The translations under genes were made by a program, and so were the position numbers. Positions 23,142 to 32,491 of a stretch of DNA of 44,568 bases are shown here, in pieces. Within the stretch, counting starts at the first letter, position 1. Every line of letters starts with the position of its first letter. Source of the DNA: a virus; the UHGV virus genome UHGV-0171754, one strand, 5' to 3'. Below the pieces are notes generated by a model. The model was not told the DNA's origin. It saw nothing but the letters and a program-made list of their open reading frames with translations, and ran no database searches.

Positions 23142-25429
23142 AAGACTTCGAACGCCTTTTTCTCGATACCGAGACATTTAGCGGGGTGGACCTGAAGAAA
23201 GTGGGCGCATACGCCTACGCAGAGCACCCAACAACCGAGATTATGATTTGCACCTACGCCATCGACGAGGGCCGCGTGCAGACATGGGATTGCACAGAGT
23301 CCCCAACAATGCCGCGTGAACTGCGCAAGGCGCTCCGCAGGGTATCCCGCAAGAAAGCAAAAATAGTGATGGCTAACGGCCTCCTGTTTGACCGCCTGGT
23401 CATTCGCGAGAAGTGGGGCATTGACCTGCCAGTGTGCCAGATCGAAGACACCATGATTATGGCCTTTCGACACGCGCTGCCGGGTGGCCTCGATATGCAG
23501 TGCCAGGTGTTGGGCGTTGACGCAGAGCACGCGAAGGATAAGGCGGGCAAGGCGCTGATCAAACGATTCTGTAAGCCAACCCCTAAGACCTACAAAATCC
23601 GCCGCTACACGCGCGAGACGCACCCCGAGGAGTGGGCTAAATTCCTGCGCTATGCCGCGTTGGATATCATCGCTATGAGGGAAGTCTATTGGCGCATACC
23701 GGACTGGGGCAACACGCCGAAGGAAGACGAAATCCTGCTTATTGACCAGTTGATCAATGACCGCGGCTTCTATGTGGACGTTGACCTGGCGAACGCCGCG
23801 ATCAAAGCGGTGCAGGCGCATAAGGAAGAATTGAAGGAAGAAGCCTGGGAGCGCTTCGGCGGTAAGCTGACCGGCAATGACTTCTTGCCCGCGCTGCGCG
23901 ACCTCGCGCCTGCGTTCACGATCCACAACGCGCAGAAATCCACGCTTAACGACCTGCTTGAAGATCCAGACTTCCCTGACGAGGGCAAAGTGCTTATCGA
24001 GATGCGCCTCGGGGCATCATCAACGGCGTCGACTAAGTACAATCCGCTCGTAAATGGGCTGTCTGCCGATGGTCGCCGCCGTGGTTGTCTTCAGTATGGT
24101 GGGGCAAAGCGCACGCTACGCTGGGCCGGTAAGGGCTTCCAGCCGCAAAACCTGGCACGCGGCGAGTATAGCGACGACCACGAAGGGAAGATTAAGCGCC
24201 GTGAAGGCGAGAGCGACGTCGCGTTTTGGGTGCGGTCGCACATGCTTACCAACGGCATCAACTCCCTGTTACGCGGGACCGCACACTGGGCGTATGACAT
24301 ATCGAAGTTAACAGCCTCGACCGTTCGCGGGTGCATTATTCCGGCTAAGGGAAAGAAGTTTGTCGTAGCGGACTATTCTAACGTGGAAGGGCGTGGCCTC
24401 GCCTGGATCGCTGGCGAGAAAACCGCGCTAATGGTGTTTAGGGCGGGTCGCGATATTTATTGTGAAACTGCCGGTAAGATGTTTGGCCTCGACCCGGAAT
24501 ACATTAAAGCCAACCGCAAAGACTTACGCCAGATCGGTAAGGCGTGCGAATTGGGACTAGGCTATGGCGGCGGCGTTGCGGCGTTCTTGCAGTTCGCTAA
24601 AAACCTGGGCCTCGACCTTTACGCGATGGCTGACGTGATGAAGGGCACATTCCCAGACCACATATGGGCGGCGGCGAAACGTGGTTATGAGTACGCCCGA
24701 ATCAACGAAGCGAAGCGCCCGCCGAAGCCTGGCAAGAAGGACGAGCGCCCAACTTATATACTGCCGAAAAACGTGTGGTTGACGTGTGACGCGATCAAAC
24801 GTATGTGGCGTGAGGCCCACCCGAAGACGGTAGCCTTTTGGGCCGAACTGGAAGACGCGGTGTTGTGTGCAATCCGCAATCCAGGCAAAGCGTACTGGGC
24901 TGGCGCGAACGTTCGCCCGGATGGCAGGAAAGCGCTTAAGATTGTTCGCACGAAGGCGAAGCATGACCCAACCTTCGACGAGGAGCGCGACGACCCGAAC
25001 GCGGCGGGGTGGTGGCTTAAAATTGAGTTGCCGTCAGGGCGCATCATGAGTTATCCGGGCATCGCGCTGTCTGTCACTACCGAGATCGACGAAGATACTG
25101 GCAAGAAACGCACCAGCACCCGCATTAAATACCAGGGCGAGAATCAGACGACGCGCCAGTGGGGCTTCCAGTATACCTACGGCGGCAAACTGACGGAAAA
25201 CATCGTGCAGGCGCTGTGTCGCGATATCCTCGCATGGTCCATGCCTGGCGTTGAATCCGCGGGATACGAGATCGTCCTGTCAGTGCACGATGAATTGATC
25301 ACCGAAGTTCCGGATACTGACGACTACACGACCGAGGAGCTATGCGCGCTGATGTGCGACCTGCCTATTTGGGCGAAAGGGTTCCCACTTGCCGCCGAAG
25401 GCGATTGTATGTATCGCTACCGCAAGTAG
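23138..25429 (+). CDS. Family A DNA polymerase with 3'-5' exonuclease domain
   Basis: 763 aa; exo motif FLDTETFSG; polymerase motif A DYSNVEGRGLAWIAGE, motif B RQIGKACELGLGYGGG, motif C SVHDELITEV. Confidence 0.9.
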   Translation: MKDFERLFLDTETFSGVDLKKVGAYAYAEHPTTEIMICTYAIDEGRVQTWDCTESPTMPRELRKALRRVSRKKAKIVMANGLLFDRLVIREKWGIDLPVCQIEDTMIMAFRHALPGGLDMQCQVLGVDAEHAKDKAGKALIKRFCKPTPKTYKIRRYTRETHPEEWAKFLRYAALDIIAMREVYWRIPDWGNTPKEDEILLIDQLINDRGFYVDVDLANAAIKAVQAHKEELKEEAWERFGGKLTGNDFLPALRDLAPAFTIHNAQKSTLNDLLEDPDFPDEGKVLIEMRLGASSTASTKYNPLVNGLSADGRRRGCLQYGGAKRTLRWAGKGFQPQNLARGEYSDDHEGKIKRREGESDVAFWVRSHMLTNGINSLLRGTAHWAYDISKLTASTVRGCIIPAKGKKFVVADYSNVEGRGLAWIAGEKTALMVFRAGRDIYCETAGKMFGLDPEYIKANRKDLRQIGKACELGLGYGGGVAAFLQFAKNLGLDLYAMADVMKGTFPDHIWAAAKRGYEYARINEAKRPPKPGKKDERPTYILPKNVWLTCDAIKRMWREAHPKTVAFWAELEDAVLCAIRNPGKAYWAGANVRPDGRKALKIVRTKAKHDPTFDEERDDPNAAGWWLKIELPSGRIMSYPGIALSVTTEIDEDTGKKRTSTRIKYQGENQTTRQWGFQYTYGGKLTENIVQALCRDILAWSMPGVESAGYEIVLSVHDELITEVPDTDDYTTEELCALMCDLPIWAKGFPLAAEGDCMYRYRK

Positions 25430-25497
25430 CGGAAATGTTGCTTTTAGCGGAAACGTCGGGCAATATTGTCTGGCGTTTTCTTTTTCGGGGGTGTATA

Positions 25498-26099
25498 TGA
25501 AACATTGTGGGCGTTGTAATACGGATAAAGATGAGTCCGCTTTCAACAAGGGTCAGTCGTGGTGCGCCAAATGCATGGCGGCGTATAAGAAAGAGAGACG
25601 GGATAAGGAAAGAGGAGCGCCGCCGCGCGAAGTATGGCGAGAGTATACCGGGGAAGTCGTAACATGCCGTACGTGCGGAGAGCGCAAGCGGCTCACGCCG
25701 GAAAACTTCCGGCCCGGAAACCGGGCAAGCCAGTCTCATATTCGTAAAGAATGCCGGTTGTGCGCTAATAAGTCCCGCCGTGAGTACAACCACCGGTCAC
25801 CAGAGGTCCGCGCATACTATAAGCTCTTTCAGTACCGTAAGGCGGACGAAAGGAAGGGGTTAAAAACCGACCTTACCACCGAGGACGTGCTACGCCTTAC
25901 TTCTCAGCCATGCGCGTACTGCGGATTCACCGGCGACAATGGCGCGGACCGACTCGACAACGCAGTAGGCCATACGAAAGATAACTGCGTACCGTGCTGC
26001 GTAGAGTGCAACATAGCCCGCGGTGACCGGTTTACCCCGGACGAAATGAAGAAGTTTATTGGGCCTGCCATAGCTGCCGTAAGGAAAAGCCGACAATGA
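25498..26099 (+). CDS. HNH endonuclease with N-terminal Cys-rich zinc-ribbon region
   Basis: 200 aa from ATG (MKHCGRCNTDKD) with GGGGG RBS; C-terminal CAYCGFTGDNGADRLDNAVGHTKDNCVPCCVECNIARGD. Confidence 0.6.
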
Positions 26100-26374
26100 C
26101 ACCAGAAGGCAAGATCCAAAGTCACCTTATGAAGTTGGTTAAAGCCGTAGGCGGATTCTGCCGTAAAGTGGCATGGGAGGGGCGCGCGGGTGCGCCCGAT
26201 CTGATTATCATCATCAACGGCAAAATAGTGTTCGTCGAAGTGAAGCGCCCAGGCGGCAAACCGAAGCCGCACCAGATACGAGAACATGAGCGAATGGCCC
26301 GCCGCGGTGCGGACGTTCGCGTTATCGACAACATAGCAGACTGTGATTTATTGGTTGCTGAGTTGGTCGCGTAG
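26096..26374 (+). CDS. VRR-NUC domain nuclease
   Basis: 92 aa; PDLIIIINGKIVFVEVKRPGGKPKPHQ signature; start overlaps upstream stop (ATGA). Confidence 0.65.
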   Translation: MTPEGKIQSHLMKLVKAVGGFCRKVAWEGRAGAPDLIIIINGKIVFVEVKRPGGKPKPHQIREHERMARRGADVRVIDNIADCDLLVAELVA

Positions 26375-26414
26375 CGGTATAGTGGGCCGGTTAGCACTAT
26401 CGAGGATTTTAGAA

Positions 26415-26588
26415 ATGGTTGAAGAAAAACGTTGCAGTAATTGCGGCTGCGTTAAACCGCTGTCCCAGTTCCATAAATACACCGGTAAGACTGCGCGAAG
26501 CCCGGACGGGTATCGGGCAGAGTGCAAATCGTGCCGCAATAAAAAAGAGCGCGAACGGCAGCGCCGCTACCGAGCAGAGCAAAAATAA
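26415..26588 (+). CDS. Small zinc-ribbon protein (57 aa)
   Basis: ATG (MVEEKRCSNCGC) with GAGGA RBS; CxxC...CxxC pattern resembling the N-terminus of the HNH protein. Confidence 0.4.
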   Translation: MVEEKRCSNCGCVKPLSQFHKYTGKTARSPDGYRAECKSCRNKKERERQRRYRAEQK

Positions 26589-26854: not shown

Positions 26855-28279
26855 ATGGCACGTTTCCGACGTCGCGAATATCAGAAGTTGATAACCGCGT
26901 TCATCCTCAAGCATAAGCGATGCAATATATGGGCGACAATGGGGTCGGGTAAAACCGGCGCGACCATGTGGGCGCTGAATAAAATGTTCCAGACCGGTAT
27001 CCTGTCCAACCAGGAGGACCGCGTACTGGTGCTGGCCCCGCTGCGCGTTGCATCTGGCACATGGCCCCCGGAACAGGAAAAATGGCGATTCCCCGCCTTG
27101 CTGGTAGTAGACGGCACCGGGTCTGAAAAAGACCGTATAGCCGCGCTTGAGAGCGGCGCTAACGTAGTTTGTGTTAACTATGATGTAGTTGAGTGGCTGG
27201 TTGACTATTACGGCGATGCGTGGCCCTTTACGGTCGTTGTTGCCGATGAATCCACTAAGCTGAAAGGTTATCGAAGCAAGCAGGGAAGTAAGCGTGCCCG
27301 TGCGCTGGCAGCGATCGCACATAAGCACGTCAAGCGCTGGATTAACCTGACCGGCACACCCGCACCAAACGGACTGAAAGACCTGTGGGGTCAGACGTGG
27401 TTTGTCGACGGCGGCGAACGCCTCGGCAGTAGTTATAAGGCATTCACTGATCGCTGGTTTATTAGCAAGCCTGTTAAGCCTGGCAGCTTTACTATGCAGC
27501 ACGCCCCGCTTAAGAACTCCGAGAAAGAAATACAACAACGCCTGTCTGACGTATCGCTCACCGTTGATGCGGCTGAATACTTCGGATGTGACAAGCCAAT
27601 CTATACGCCGGTTGTTGTGGACCTGCCGAAGAAAGCCCGCAAGATCTACGACCAGTTTGAAAGCGAGCTATTTGCCGAACTGGAAAGCGGAACGGTGGAG
27701 GCGGCGAACGCTGCTTCGAAGACCATTAAGTGCCTTCAGCTTGCTTCCGGGGCCGTGTATAAGGTCGACGAAGACGGCGAACGGACCGACGAATGGGTGA
27801 AAATTCACGACGCTAAACTGGACGCGCTGGAAAGTATCATGGAGGAGTTGAACGGCGCACCGTTGCTCGTCGCGTACCAATACAAGCATGATCTGGCGCG
27901 TCTCAAGAAGAAATTCCCGCACGGCGTTGCGTTGGGCAAGGGCAAGCAGGGCAATAAGGATATGGAAGCGTGGAATAGGGGCGAGATCCCCATCATGTTT
28001 GCGCACCCTGCCTCGGCGGGTCACGGCCTCAACCTGCAGGATGGCGGGCACCACCTTGCTATCTTCTCCGATACCTGGAACTTTGAGCACTTTTCGCAGA
28101 TCGTGGAGCGTATAGGGCCGGTTCGCCAGATGCAAGCCGGACACCCCCGTCCAGTATTCGTCTATATTATCCAGGCGCGCGGGACACTGGACGAACTGGT
28201 CGCCGAGCGTCGCGACAGTAAGCGAGATATTCAGGACGACTTGATGGAATACATGAAAGCTAAAAAGGCGCGCAAATGA
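26855..28279 (+). CDS. SNF2-family (superfamily 2) helicase
   Basis: 474 aa from ATG (MARFRRREYQ); motif I ATMGSGKTG, motif II VVADESTKL, motif III LTGTPAPNG. Confidence 0.75.
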   Translation: MARFRRREYQKLITAFILKHKRCNIWATMGSGKTGATMWALNKMFQTGILSNQEDRVLVLAPLRVASGTWPPEQEKWRFPALLVVDGTGSEKDRIAALESGANVVCVNYDVVEWLVDYYGDAWPFTVVVADESTKLKGYRSKQGSKRARALAAIAHKHVKRWINLTGTPAPNGLKDLWGQTWFVDGGERLGSSYKAFTDRWFISKPVKPGSFTMQHAPLKNSEKEIQQRLSDVSLTVDAAEYFGCDKPIYTPVVVDLPKKARKIYDQFESELFAELESGTVEAANAASKTIKCLQLASGAVYKVDEDGERTDEWVKIHDAKLDALESIMEELNGAPLLVAYQYKHDLARLKKKFPHGVALGKGKQGNKDMEAWNRGEIPIMFAHPASAGHGLNLQDGGHHLAIFSDTWNFEHFSQIVERIGPVRQMQAGHPRPVFVYIIQARGTLDELVAERRDSKRDIQDDLMEYMKAKKARK

Positions 28280-28971
28280 TTATCTGGTCATTATTTGACG
28301 GCAGCGGCTTGATGATTGAGCGTGCTGCCGAGATGGGTCATAAGTGTTTTTGCTTCAACTACTCCGAAGCCGACCACGGATCGTACCTGGACTACCGGAT
28401 TTATGGGCGCGGGATCCGCTATCGTAATGAGTTTATAGACCTGGACTTCGTGGACCGCGCGATGAATGGTGATTTCGGTACGCCGGATATCATATATGCG
28501 TTCCCTCCGTGTACGGATCTGGCAGTTAGCGGTGCGCCCGCTTTTCCGCGCAAGCGGGCTAAAGACCCTGCCTTTCAGCTTAAGGCGGTGCGCACCGCGA
28601 AGATTGCCGCTTACCTGGGTGATTTCTTTGAGGTGCCATATATGATTGAGAATCCGCGCAGCGTGCTATCCACTCAATGGCGTAAGCCGGACCACTCGTT
28701 TGACCCGTGGGAGTATGGTGGCTATTTGCCAGAGGATGACGTACACCCGTTATTCCCTGAATACATCAACGCCCGCGATTCATATCCGAAGCTGACCTGC
28801 TTATGGACCGGCAACGGCTTCCGTATGCCAGAGAAGAAACCTGTTTTCGTTGAAAAAGGGTACTCGAAGCAGTATAGTCGCCTCGGGGGCAAATCTGCCC
28901 GCACCAAATTAATCAGGTCGCTCACCCCGCGCGGCTTCGCGATAGCGGTCAATGAGGAAAATTTAAAATGA
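28276..28971 (+). CDS. Short DNA cytosine-C5 methyltransferase-like protein
   Basis: 231 aa; motif I-like SLFDGSG, motif IV-like FPPCTDLAVSG (Pro-Cys), motif VI-like ENPRSVL; no obvious target-recognition domain. Confidence 0.5.
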   Translation: MIIWSLFDGSGLMIERAAEMGHKCFCFNYSEADHGSYLDYRIYGRGIRYRNEFIDLDFVDRAMNGDFGTPDIIYAFPPCTDLAVSGAPAFPRKRAKDPAFQLKAVRTAKIAAYLGDFFEVPYMIENPRSVLSTQWRKPDHSFDPWEYGGYLPEDDVHPLFPEYINARDSYPKLTCLWTGNGFRMPEKKPVFVEKGYSKQYSRLGGKSARTKLIRSLTPRGFAIAVNEENLK

Positions 28972-29291
28972 ATACTACATTCGAAGCCATCGACTTTTCC
29001 GTGGCAATGACCAATCAGCTTTTTTCCTACGACAGCAAGACCGGCGTCATTCGCCTGAAATCCACAGGCTGCAAGATCGGCAACCTTAACACTGCCGATG
29101 GTGGCACGCGCATCGAGTGCAACGGCAAGACGCTGTCTGGAGCGCGCGTGGCGTGGATTATCGCGACAGGCAATACAATCCCTCCAGGCTACGCCGTTGT
29201 GTGTCGCCAGCGCACGCCAGGGCACTATGGCAACCGCATTAGTAACCTGTATCTGGTAGACGTTGCGCGCGACCCAAATTTTTATTCGTAA
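28968..29291 (+). CDS. Putative HNH-type homing endonuclease-like protein
   Basis: 107 aa; FSYDSKTGVIRLKS and HYGNRISNLYLVD segments resemble HNH endonuclease N- and C-terminal motifs. Confidence 0.35.
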   Translation: MNTTFEAIDFSVAMTNQLFSYDSKTGVIRLKSTGCKIGNLNTADGGTRIECNGKTLSGARVAWIIATGNTIPPGYAVVCRQRTPGHYGNRISNLYLVDVARDPNFYS

Positions 29292-29296
29292 ATTGG

Positions 29297-29325
29297 TTGC
29301 ATAACCGTATTGGTTGCATTATATT
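29297..29325 (+). promoter_or_regulatory. Candidate promoter (TTGCAT-17-TATATT) with two direct TTGGTTGC octamers
   Basis: Octamers at 29295-29302 and 29310-29317; second ends 2 nt before the -10, same spacing as at 5874/5884 and 31235/31245. Confidence 0.45.
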
Positions 29326-29372
29326 GAGGGTGTCCGGTTTGGACGCCCTTTTTAATACCCGGAGACAGTGAT

Positions 29373-29624
29373 ATGAAATCATTATTTTTCGACTACGACG
29401 GCGACCTTCGATTTTGGGTGCTCCTCACCCTCATGATTGCCGTTTGTGTTTGCGTACCTGCCGCTGGTGTCGCGGGTGCCTACTACTCGGAACGCTACGA
29501 ATGCCGGACTGTGTACGCAGAGCAAACAGGTCGCAACACCCAATGGCGCTATGGTGTCTGCTGGTTAGAGATGGACGGCAAATTTATCCCCCGCGATGAA
29601 ATCCGCACTACGGAGACTAAATAG
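29373..29624 (+). CDS. Small membrane protein (83 aa)
   Basis: GGAGA RBS; hydrophobic segment WVLLTLMIAVCVCVPAAGVAGAYY. Confidence 0.5.
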   Translation: MKSLFFDYDGDLRFWVLLTLMIAVCVCVPAAGVAGAYYSERYECRTVYAEQTGRNTQWRYGVCWLEMDGKFIPRDEIRTTETK

Positions 29625-30089
29625 ATGAAAATTTTACAAGAAGAAAAAGATTACTGGGCCGCGCAATGCCTCGAAGCCCGCGAACAGGCCGAACGTGCGA
29701 ACGCGTTGGCCGACACCAACCAGGCTCTCTATGAAGGCGAGAAGAAAGTGCGCGAGGAATTAGCGGAACGCTTCGTACTTCTCTTCGAACTGATGGGGAT
29801 TATGCAGCGCACCGGATACACAACCAGCGTTGCGCTAAACCGCATCACTGCCGACGGGCTGCGTGAGCACTGCAAACGTGCGGAGGAGTACGTGCGACCG
29901 AAGGGTCGCACGTCTGAGATCGACCGTAAAGACTTGGTGCTTATGGCGTGGCGCAACCCTACAAACGGCAGCTTCTACCCGGACGCTCGCCCGCTTAGTG
30001 CCGAGGAGACAAAGCGCGTGCAACGCATTCTCAAGACCGGCAATAAAATCGCCCTGTATGCGATAGACACCGACCATGCAGAAGAGTGA
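29625..30089 (+). CDS. Hypothetical protein (154 aa)
   Basis: GGAGA RBS; ATG directly after upstream stop. Confidence 0.5.
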   Translation: MKILQEEKDYWAAQCLEAREQAERANALADTNQALYEGEKKVREELAERFVLLFELMGIMQRTGYTTSVALNRITADGLREHCKRAEEYVRPKGRTSEIDRKDLVLMAWRNPTNGSFYPDARPLSAEETKRVQRILKTGNKIALYAIDTDHAEE

Positions 30090-30561
30090 GCAAAAAGATA
30101 GCTGGCGCACGCCGCCAGCTTTATTTAAACCGCTGCGCCGGAAGTACAGATTCCGTTATGACATGGCGGCGAGCGATGCCAACCACCTGTTACCGCGTTA
30201 CTTCACGGCGGAGCACAGCGCGCTCGATGTGGACTGGTCAGAGTTGAAAGGGTGGAAGTGGTGCAACCCGCCGTATTCCGATCCGCTGCCGTGGGTCGAG
30301 TGTGCGGCGCATGGACGCCGTACTGTCATGCTACTGAATCAGGACACGTCGACGAAGTGGGCGAAGCTGGCCAGGAAGACCGCAAACCTGATAATTCTTC
30401 TGGACTGGCGTATCAGATTTATACACGCTGTAACCGGTGAAGTCGGGCCGAGCAATAACAAGTGCCAGCAATTGGTAATCTTTGACGAAGCGCCGCCCCG
30501 CGGCAGCGCACAAATTGAAATAATGAGCGAGAGTGAGCTACATGAATATCTTAGTCGTTGA
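30076..30561 (+). CDS. DNA N6-adenine methyltransferase (phage Dam-like)
   Basis: 161 aa; N-terminal WRTPPALF and catalytic NPPYS motifs. Confidence 0.7.
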   Translation: MQKSEQKDSWRTPPALFKPLRRKYRFRYDMAASDANHLLPRYFTAEHSALDVDWSELKGWKWCNPPYSDPLPWVECAAHGRRTVMLLNQDTSTKWAKLARKTANLIILLDWRIRFIHAVTGEVGPSNNKCQQLVIFDEAPPRGSAQIEIMSESELHEYLSR

Positions 30562-30766
30562 CCGCAGTATGCGCGTCGTGGACGAAATTGTTAAACGCTA
30601 CCAAATTAACCCGAGGGAGAACAAAGTGCGGCGGGTCAGTCGCCCGGAGCAATTGCTCGGCATGGACCTTACCGGCTGGCTTGTAATGACCGCCCGTTGT
30701 CATCTTGTGTGTGACGCTTTTTCTGCCCGTGTTGTTCGTATGAATCTGATCGAGGAGTTGAAATGA
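30542..30766 (+). CDS. Small hypothetical protein (74 aa)
   Basis: ATG (MNILVVDRS); start uncertain (GTG 9 nt upstream also possible). Confidence 0.35.
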   Translation: MNILVVDRSMRVVDEIVKRYQINPRENKVRRVSRPEQLLGMDLTGWLVMTARCHLVCDAFSARVVRMNLIEELK

Positions 30767-31233
30767 AATTACTGATTTGCGATTTGGATGGCGTTATTAA
30801 CGGTTCAAGCGATGCGCGTGCCGACCTGGTGCCTGGGATAAAAACTAAATCCACCTTTTGGGCGAAGTGGCACAAGGCGCACGTCCGCGAAGATCTGAAC
30901 ATGGATATGCTGCCGCTGCTGACCATGTACAAAGAGCAAGGCTTCGAAATCGCGTATCTGACCAACCGGCAGCGGGAATGCTGGGAAACCACCGCCGAAC
31001 AACTGGAAGTATTCCCGACAGGCCGGTTGTTTATGCGCCACATGCTGGACGATACCCCGCCGCCAGAGTTTAAGGCGTGCGCCGTGTTCAAAATGGTCTG
31101 CTATGCGGACGTGTCGGAACTGGTCATCATTGAAGATTGCGAGAAGAACATCGCGGCAATTCGTCGGGCGTGTGGCGATTTGGTCCCGAAAATTTACGCA
31201 ATAAACGTTGCAAAATTCACTTGCAACCAATAG
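30763..31233 (+). CDS. HAD-superfamily phosphatase-like protein (possible nucleotidase)
   Basis: 156 aa; N-terminal LICDLDGVIN resembles the HAD motif I (DxDG). Confidence 0.45.
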   Translation: MKLLICDLDGVINGSSDARADLVPGIKTKSTFWAKWHKAHVREDLNMDMLPLLTMYKEQGFEIAYLTNRQRECWETTAEQLEVFPTGRLFMRHMLDDTPPPEFKACAVFKMVCYADVSELVIIEDCEKNIAAIRRACGDLVPKIYAINVAKFTCNQ

Positions 31234-32473: not shown

Positions 32474-32491
32474 AGGGGCCACATGGCCCCT
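32474..32491. terminator. Bidirectional terminator between the rightward operon and the tail fiber gene
   Basis: Stem aggggcc/ggcccct with 4 nt loop, A-run upstream, T-rich downstream. Confidence 0.6.

Follow-up and report, generated by a model that had tools for sequence, protein, structure and literature searches.

The virus genome UHGV-0171754 was analysed as a single stretch of 44,568 nucleotides (the window), and our subject is the interval from 26855 to 30561, in which a helicase of the SNF2 family, a 231-amino acid (aa) protein related to cytosine C5 methyltransferases (methylases), an HNH-like protein and a Dam-like adenine methylase are encoded in that order. We find that this interval is likely the middle of a rightward early/replication unit that co-transcribes four unrelated functions, among them a minimal methylase that would act autonomously to produce 5-methylcytosine (5mC). 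This reading is based on the gene content and its synteny, on homology, on the fold and on the conservation of motifs; the cofactor, the product, the recognition sequences and the biological roles are what we infer from these observations.

The interval is widely conserved among related phages. A megablast search with 26855-30561 against 50,697 GenBank phage records matched 158 records, 150 of which cover at least 80% of the interval at 80-95% identity; the matched records are nearly all Dhillonvirus phages of Escherichia or Shigella, ~44-45 kb in genome size. Because 150 records keep the block, its open reading frames (ORFs) are real genes and not chance occurrences. The gene order of the window also occurs in YD-2008.s (NC_027383) and jat (MN850650), whose annotations run from DNA polymerase through a VRR-NUC nuclease, small proteins, helicase, ‘DNA cytosine C5 methyltransferase’ and then ‘putative HNH endonuclease’ to two small proteins followed by ‘DNA N-6-adenine methyltransferase’. 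Thus, the block was already in databases, labelled largely as in an earlier interpretation made from the letters of the window and their ORFs (the sequence-only reading). That reading had described a cluster of four genes, and all four are found where it placed them, on the + strand. Two small genes that it did not mention, at 29373-29624 and 29625-30089, also lie within the interval. Judged by these matches, the phage is a Dhillonvirus-type coliphage and 26855-30561 is a known, annotated replication gene block. The six genes are the following:

26855-28279, + strand: SNF2-family helicase, 474 aa (Pfam SNF2-rel_dom, phrog_62)
28276-28971, + strand: predicted minimal DNMT3-like C5-cytosine methyltransferase, 231 aa, of the ‘phage Dcm’ family (motifs, relatives, predicted fold)
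28968-29291, + strand: probably degenerate HNH_3-like protein, 107 aa (phrog_99; HNH_3 match below cut-off)
29373-29624, + strand: 83-aa protein with a hydrophobic segment (phrog_18961, unknown function, E = 1.3e-49; no significant Pfam match)
29625-30089, + strand: 154-aa protein (phrog_10530, E = 3.7e-95; no Pfam, NCBIfam or PADLOC match)
30076-30561, + strand: predicted orphan phage Dam-family N6-adenine DNA methyltransferase, 161 aa (PF05869)

Start/stop overlaps of the form ATGA join the helicase gene to the 231-aa gene and the 231-aa gene to the 107-aa gene.

On the evidence of its motifs, of relatives that pass the PF00145 threshold and of its predicted fold, the 231-aa protein is a genuine C5-cytosine methyltransferase of minimal size. 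It matches phrog_757 (‘DNA methyltransferase’) with E = 4.3e-82 and belongs to a large family of uniformly small proteins. There are 2882 relatives among 5.8 billion proteins, essentially all of them 225-250 aa long, and a profile search of 1.84 billion representatives of 50%-identity clusters yielded 1942 clusters at E ≤ 0.001, nearly all of 210-260 aa, stand-alone and matched by the profile from end to end. By tblastn, this type of gene is found in 1512 of the 50,697 phage records (~3%), and its carriers include Dhillonvirus, Drexlerviridae, Jersey-like, rV5-like and T5-like phages as well as Klebsiella siphoviruses. Since Pfam and NCBIfam miss this common phage enzyme, many copies are labelled ‘hypothetical’. 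Fusions of the minimal domain are rare; one protein of 563 aa (P0266) joins it to a D12-class N6-adenine DNA methylase. The metagenomic relatives P0242, P0263 and P0264 have N-terminal extensions of unknown nature, 175-200 aa in length, and in uncultured phages (BFVD A0A6J5SE15 and A0A6J5NPY6) the domain is found within helicase-containing proteins of 1126-1397 aa.

Conservation within the family falls on the residues expected of a C5 methyltransferase. Motifs I (FDGSG), IV (FPPCT) and VI (ENP) are invariant in 30 close relatives. In 45 representatives that share at most 50% identity, Cys79, Glu125, Pro127, Pro144, Tyr170, Trp177 and Pro185 are invariant, and conservation is at least 90% at Asn126, Arg136, Lys172, Thr174, Arg214-Ser215, Pro218 and Gly220; the glycines of motif I are less conserved across the wider family, in which the consensus is SLFDxTG. 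The motifs map to the window as follows:

28294-28308, + strand: motif I, FDGSG (residues 7-11), the predicted cofactor-binding loop, which aligns with DNMT3A ‘FDGIA’ and M.HaeIII ‘FSGAG’
28501-28515, + strand: motif IV, FPPCT, with the predicted catalytic Cys79 (codon 28510-28512), which aligns with DNMT3A SPC(N) and M.HaeIII PC
28648-28656, + strand: motif VI, ENP, with Glu125 (canonical form ENV), which aligns with DNMT3A FENV
28789-28797, + strand: motif VIII position, K172-L-T174 instead of R-x-R, from a low-confidence extended hhalign alignment to DNMT3A R790/R792
28912-28935, + strand: conserved C-terminal motif IRSLTPRG, which resembles motif IX or a DNMT3-type motif X

Two kinds of comparison point to a C5 methyltransferase. 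PF00145 is matched by 20 of the 30 close relatives, four of which score above the 22-bit gathering score (22.8-28.5 bits), and the matches span profile positions 4-94 only, which correspond to motifs I-IV. Motifs I-IV also aligned when the family profile was compared by hhalign in local mode with the catalytic domain of DNMT3A (E = 3e-4; the DNMT3A sequence used is identical to 5yx2_A, and the M.HhaI sequence was likewise verified). The alignment with M.HhaI was weaker than that with DNMT3A; global hhalign gave no sensible alignment, and the local alignment to DNMT3A alone was informative. Profiles A1 and A2, compared with PDB sequences, gave just a sub-threshold match to M.HaeIII (E = 0.18-0.72). 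An AlphaFold2 model of the protein made from alignment A1, with a predicted local distance difference test score (pLDDT) of 89 and a predicted template modelling (TM) score (pTM) of 0.88, has the class I S-adenosylmethionine (SAM)-methyltransferase fold, of the C5 type. DNMT3A, B and C account for the first 48 Foldseek matches of this model, and 3g7u comes 49th, with a best E of ~3e-7, a probability of 1.00 throughout and TM-scores of 0.45-0.56. In a viral structure library, the next matches beyond family members are other viral cytosine methyltransferases.

The part of the enzyme that follows motif VIII is much shorter than in DNMT3A. A relaxed local hhalign alignment, which is of low confidence, sets ENP opposite ENV of DNMT3A and YPKLTCLWTGN opposite HRARYFWGN, and thereby Lys172 and Thr174 opposite DNMT3A R790 and R792. 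Only 57 residues follow motif VIII (Thr174) in the window protein, compared to 120 in DNMT3A and 162 in M.HhaI, and ~40 residues separate Thr174 from Arg214. The conventional small domain (target-recognition domain) is thus absent, and the sequence-only reading was borne out in describing the protein as short and apparently without such a domain, a description that holds for the entire family given its range of 210-260 aa. The window protein is 14-16% identical to DNMT3A and DNMT3B (PDB 2qrv and 6u8p), and we found no evidence in it for oligomerisation of the DNMT3 type or for CpG specificity.

The activity of this family has been reported for a relative from phage K42, a member of the Drexlerviridae that is like KarlJaspers (Bas06), in a study of the trigger of retron Ec86 (Eco1) (10.1101/2023.08.16.553469; published as Wang et al., Cell Rep 43:114857 (2024)). 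Four of four K42 escapers from this retron disrupt a 711-bp ‘dcm’ gene, and its product was modelled on DNMT3A, with C82, E128, K175 and K176 named as active-site residues (10.1101/2023.08.16.553469). Expressed alone, K42 Dcm raised the 5mC content of the multicopy single-stranded DNA (msDNA), as measured by LC-MS (liquid chromatography coupled to mass spectrometry) with a 5mC standard, while a quadruple alanine mutant gave neither a rise in 5mC nor retron triggering (10.1101/2023.08.16.553469).

We find that the corresponding gene of KarlJaspers (MZ501090), bas06_0055, to which the K42 gene is nearly identical, is exactly 711 bp long, encodes 236 aa and is annotated as ‘Dcm-like C5 cytosine methyltransferase’. 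By BLASTP its product aligns collinearly with the entire window protein at 54% identity (E = 1e-86), and the ‘Dcm-like’ ortholog of Bas11 is 55% identical (E = 8e-86). The numbering offset of +3 in the Bas06 alignment equates C82, E128 and K175 of K42 Dcm with C79, E125 and K172 of the window protein; K176 corresponds to Leu173. This homology and the shared residues place the window protein in a family with published activity. K42 and KarlJaspers differ from the window in belonging to the Drexlerviridae, in the neighbours of the gene and in Lys176. The sequence-only reading had suggested that the short methylase might act on another substrate; this is unlikely, since the K42 ortholog alone raises 5mC in DNA and the catalytic mutant does not. 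The K42 results and the fusion of P0266 to a D12-class DNA methylase both argue for DNA as the substrate of the family. A literature search returned nothing specific on Dhillonvirus methylomes or on characterised methyltransferases without a target-recognition domain.

The second methylase, the 161-aa protein, is by its domain match a complete orphan adenine methylase of family PF05869 (E = 3.7e-36, 124.8 bits versus a cut-off of 28.1, profile positions 5-153 of 169). Its NPPY motif lies at residues 64-67 (30265-30276), and it matches the PADLOC ‘orphan methyltransferase’ model with E = 6e-11. In the full-domain match, the NPPY motif and its occurrence as an orphan phage gene, it is like the phage Dam family PF05869/TIGR01712. 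It is unlike TIGR01712 and the T1-like Dam in its equivalog score, which at 86.9 bits is under the cut-off of 97.05, in its 30% identity to the Dam-like protein of KarlJaspers (E = 2e-14) and in its length (161 versus 233 aa).

The helicase has the features of a replication enzyme. It matches SNF2-rel_dom of Pfam (E = 7e-11, 42.2 bits versus a cut-off of 24.9) and, over residues 3-473, phrog_62 ‘DNA helicase’ (E = 1.7e-155), and homologous phages annotate the gene as a helicase. Like the SF2/SNF2 helicases of phage replication modules (phrog_62), it is a stand-alone, two-lobe protein encoded in a replication/recombination gene set; T5 D10 and T4 UvsW would be its functional analogues. The rightward unit in which it lies starts from promoter-like sites (19.0-19.3 kb), reaches a bidirectional terminator (32474-32491) and encodes an exonuclease, a Gp2.5-like single-stranded DNA-binding (SSB)/annealing protein, DNA polymerase, an HNH/EndoVII-like nuclease and a VRR-NUC nuclease in addition to the helicase, the two methylases and a protein like the phosphatase of polynucleotide kinase (PNK). 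The position of the helicase among these replication genes indicates that it belongs to the replication/recombination machinery.

The label ‘HNH-like’ given by the sequence-only reading is weak for the 107-aa protein, which matches phrog_99 (HNH endonuclease) with E = 2e-16; the match to HNH_3 (PF13392) is below cut-off (E = 0.07, 13.2 bits versus 24.8) and covers 17 residues, at profile positions 5-21 of 46. There is no relative in PDB, and the relatives among the 5.8 billion proteins form 5 clusters, which share at least 80% identity and come without exception from contigs of Dhillonvirus size. In a manual alignment to what we take to be the HNH_3 pattern, both histidine positions are replaced, ‘HR’ by A59-R60 and the His of ‘DH’ by Q81. 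Thus, this protein is probably a degenerate, genus-specific HNH_3-like remnant and not an active nuclease.

These observations fit together in the following proposal. The SNF2 helicase would act with the exonuclease, the Gp2.5-like SSB, the DNA polymerase and the VRR-NUC nuclease in replication and recombination, and the orphan Dam-family enzyme would methylate phage DNA, probably at GATC; the 107-aa remnant would probably contribute no nuclease activity. In the 231-aa enzyme, the nucleophile would be Cys79 (motif IV, PPC), adding at C6 of the flipped cytosine; N3 would be protonated by Glu125 (motif VI, ENP), and C5 would receive the methyl group of SAM. The enzyme keeps the catalytic large domain, closest to that of DNMT3, and has lost the small domain that normally reads DNA; the likely DNA contacts are short basic loops within residues 178-213 and the insert (~150-168) that separates strands 6 and 7. 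By homology with K42 Dcm, the product is expected to be 5mC in double-stranded DNA, possibly at CCWGG. In dcm-negative hosts, such modification would guard against enzymes of the EcoRII type without creating McrBC targets (RmC, a purine followed by methylated cytosine); as a side effect, retron Ec86 should then be able to detect the phage. RmC is not produced when the inner C of CCWGG is methylated, and we infer that this would allow growth on K-12. Compared to E. coli Dcm and M.EcoRII, the chemistry is presumed to be the same, the target site is possibly the same and the BASEL genomes annotate the gene as ‘Dcm-like’, but the window protein fails PF00145, is half the size, and has neither a target-recognition domain nor a Vsr partner.

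Several observations weigh against parts of this proposal. The 231-aa protein itself has no significant match in Pfam, NCBIfam, PADLOC or PDB sequences. The acidic residue of motif II, which is Asp in most of the family, is Asn28 in the clade of the window. If the low-confidence alignment is correct, the arginine of motif VIII, which contacts the O2 of cytosine (R165 in M.HhaI), appears to be replaced by the conserved Thr174. The one conserved C-terminal motif, IRSLTPRGFAxAV, is like both RxLTPRE of motif IX and GRSWSVP of the DNMT3 motif X. With respect to the target sites, the GATC specificity of the window Dam is assumed from that of the T1, HP1 and VT2 Dam enzymes, and its identity to the T1-like Dam of KarlJaspers is only 30%. 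CCWGG was taken over from E. coli Dcm by the authors of the K42 study and not mapped; its sole support there is that mutation of the CCTGG site of the msDNA abolishes defence (10.1101/2023.08.16.553469). Furthermore, the msDNA of dcm+ MG1655 has little 5mC when the phage gene is absent (10.1101/2023.08.16.553469), which hints, without proving it, that host Dcm and the phage enzyme are not simply redundant.

With these points in mind, we considered other explanations of the 231-aa protein. The enzyme might be something other than a copy of Dcm, transferring another group (for instance a carboxymethyl group from carboxy-SAM, Cx-SAM, supplied by E. coli CmoA), acting on another substrate (RNA, or DNA that is single-stranded or folded into hairpins) or, for want of a target-recognition domain, reading a short or relaxed site. 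A precedent is CmoX, a phage DNA cytosine C5-carboxymethyltransferase (PDB 8yf3) with a full-size domain, SPPC and R350, which is encoded alongside CmoA and ligase genes (PMC12783734). We consider this improbable for the window protein: the product of the K42 ortholog is 5mC by LC-MS against a standard, no CmoA, ligase or other hypermodification gene was found in the window, and DNMT3A, whose SAM-binding residues are 891-893, likewise has the motif X arginine and uses SAM. A relaxed site would create RmC sites that are cut by McrBC, yet these phages were isolated on K-12. A narrower proposal is that the ~230-aa protein is the smallest autonomous DNA C5-cytosine methyltransferase known and, lacking a target-recognition domain and having Thr where motif VIII has arginine, reads DNA otherwise than E. 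coli Dcm does, in which case its targets may be shorter or structure-dependent (hairpins or replication intermediates), or may lie elsewhere than at the inner C of CCWGG; we hold this to be possible but doubtful. The missing target-recognition domain, and perhaps missing motif IX or X, would also be expected of the catalytic subunit of a split methyltransferase such as M.AquI or M.EcoHK31I, and the translationally coupled downstream gene, for the 107-aa protein with its putative DNA-binding HNH_3-like fold, offers a recognition subunit. However, the Drexlerviridae and rV5-like phages that carry the methylase do not keep the 107-aa gene, nearly all of the 1942 family clusters consist of proteins that stand alone and are 210-260 aa long, and K42 Dcm is active when expressed alone, making a split enzyme extremely unlikely. 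The 107-aa protein as the missing recognition subunit was rejected, given that it is restricted to the genus and that the downstream genes in Drexlerviridae are unrelated. A catalytically dead protein that acts by binding, for instance as a decoy or regulator, would account for the extreme sequence divergence, for the lack of significant matches to curated models and for the non-canonical motifs II and VIII, but is scarcely credible when Cys79 and Glu125 are invariant, and N126, R136, K172 and R214-S215 nearly so, in representatives of at most 50% identity, and when the catalytic mutant of K42 loses both methylation and retron triggering.

The sequence-only reading had proposed that the methylases and the SNF2 helicase could form an anti-restriction or DNA-modification module. 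In this explanation, the four genes would constitute one machine that combines helicase and methylase, similar to DISARM or to DarB. The genes are indeed adjacent and translationally coupled, the block is kept in 150 Dhillonvirus-type records, a structurally similar methylase domain is fused to helicase domains in the large proteins of uncultured phages, and the helicase has weak SNF2 matches to DrmD, DpdE and ZorD. But the similarity to these defence proteins is weak and generic (PADLOC matches of E = 2e-11 or weaker), with scores far under the cut-offs (for DrmD, 24.8 bits versus a family cut-off of 950), and the helicase lies in a standard replication set. Outside Dhillonvirus, the neighbours of the methylase gene are unrelated to those in the window: small genes without relation to them surround it in an rV5-like phage, and the genes that come after it in a T1-like metagenomic contig, in Bas06 and in Bas11 encode unrelated hypothetical proteins. 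In the KarlJaspers genome (Bas06), the Dam gene is 7 kb from the methylase gene, with the lysis cassette between them. Added to this, the HNH-like protein is genus-specific and degenerate, and K42 Dcm works alone from a plasmid. Gene content, synteny and family scores thus gave no evidence for a four-gene module, and we consider one quite improbable. The two methylases remain plausible as narrow anti-restriction or modification functions, but inclusion of the helicase, which belongs with the replication set, and of the genus-restricted HNH-like gene is not supported. A DISARM-like interpretation of SNF2 plus methylase was rejected on the DrmD score and because no other genes of the system are in the window; for membership of the helicase in DISARM, Dpd or Zorya, both a family-level score and partner genes are wanting within the window. 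As judged by neighbours that vary between phage groups, the cytosine methylase is autonomous, which returns us to the reading of the interval as part of a replication unit with unrelated co-transcribed functions.

The unit contains an internal feature that probably acts as a regulatory boundary and would split the cluster between the 107-aa and 83-aa genes:

29291-29357, + strand, intergenic: a pair of copies of a recurrent 11-mer, (A/T)ATTGGTTGCA, followed by a hairpin and T-run (~29331-29357)

The 11-mer, TATTGGTTGCA, allowing at most one mismatch, is present in 10 copies in the window, compared to 0.86 expected, and none of 100 shuffles reached 10. The copies are mostly paired at 17-31 nt, intergenic and just upstream of gene starts, and the 11-mer is probably a phage-specific promoter or operator element. 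Its copies are located at:

5883, + strand
15418, + strand
15952, - strand
15983, - strand
19259, - strand
26349, + strand
29291, + strand
29308, + strand
31222, - strand
34338, + strand

Several other genes in or near the interval merit comment. The ‘DNA ligase’ label of the 154-aa protein (29625-30089), found in NC_027383 and for phrog_10530, with the protein hypothetical in MN850650, is probably a propagated mis-annotation, as the protein is far too small and has no domain support. The HNH/endonuclease VII-like ORF at 25389-26099 (likely ATG at 25497; phrog_1035, E = 6.7e-42), which contains repeated Cys-x2-Cys zinc-ribbon units, sits between the DNA polymerase and VRR-NUC genes; jat has nothing at this position and YD-2008.s only a 63-aa ORF, and the gene thus looks like a mobile homing-endonuclease insertion. 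Nearby, 26343-26588 encodes an 81-aa Cys-rich protein that carries the label ‘Lar-like restriction alleviation protein’ (phrog_5558, E = 3e-19). This protein has further matches to the zinc ribbon of the endonuclease VII/HNH PHROGs and is like the N-terminal repeats of the neighbouring HNH ORF; its anti-restriction label is doubtful. Beyond the Dam gene, 30763-31233 encodes a 156-aa protein with a DLDGV motif of the HAD type and a match to phrog_415 ‘polynucleotide kinase’ (E = 3e-35). It has weak Pfam matches to HAD acid-phosphatase and PNKP-phosphatase families as well, and is probably a 3'-phosphatase-like enzyme for repair of DNA or RNA ends.

If the methylases protect the phage from restriction, that protection is expected to be narrow. 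Dhillonviruses are reported to be comparatively sensitive to restriction of types I and II; with the Drexlerviridae, they are reported to be restricted much more than Queuovirinae, and methyltransferase genes were not simply linked to restriction resistance (BASEL, PMC8594841). In the entire window, the 6-bp palindromes GCCGGC, AAGCTT, GGGCCC, CAGCTG, CACGTG and GCATGC do not occur, GGCGCC occurs once compared to 21 expected, EcoKI sites are absent and CTAG is depleted. GATC (164 sites) and CCWGG (148 sites) are present at about the expected frequency and are thus not avoided. The restriction sensitivity of Dhillonviruses together with this palindrome avoidance argues that any methylase protection is narrow, and the pattern fits narrow protection at sites of the Dam and Dcm types with avoidance of other sites, a pattern that does not by itself prove the specificities.

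More than 100 Dhillonvirus genomes carry the block in annotated form, and both the activity of the methylase family and its role as the Ec86 trigger are published; the finding is therefore known in substance. What gives the enzyme its interest is the choice of its recognition sequence and the way in which so minimal a protein reads DNA without a target-recognition domain. If the protein does prove to be the smallest autonomous enzyme of its kind and to read DNA differently from E. coli Dcm, its recognition mechanism would be both minimal and new, and would account for the response of Ec86 msDNA to the phage enzyme and apparently not to the host Dcm. For this phage, the gene predicts sensitivity to hosts with retron Ec86, such as E. 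coli B/BL21, which bears on the choice of host in phage therapy.

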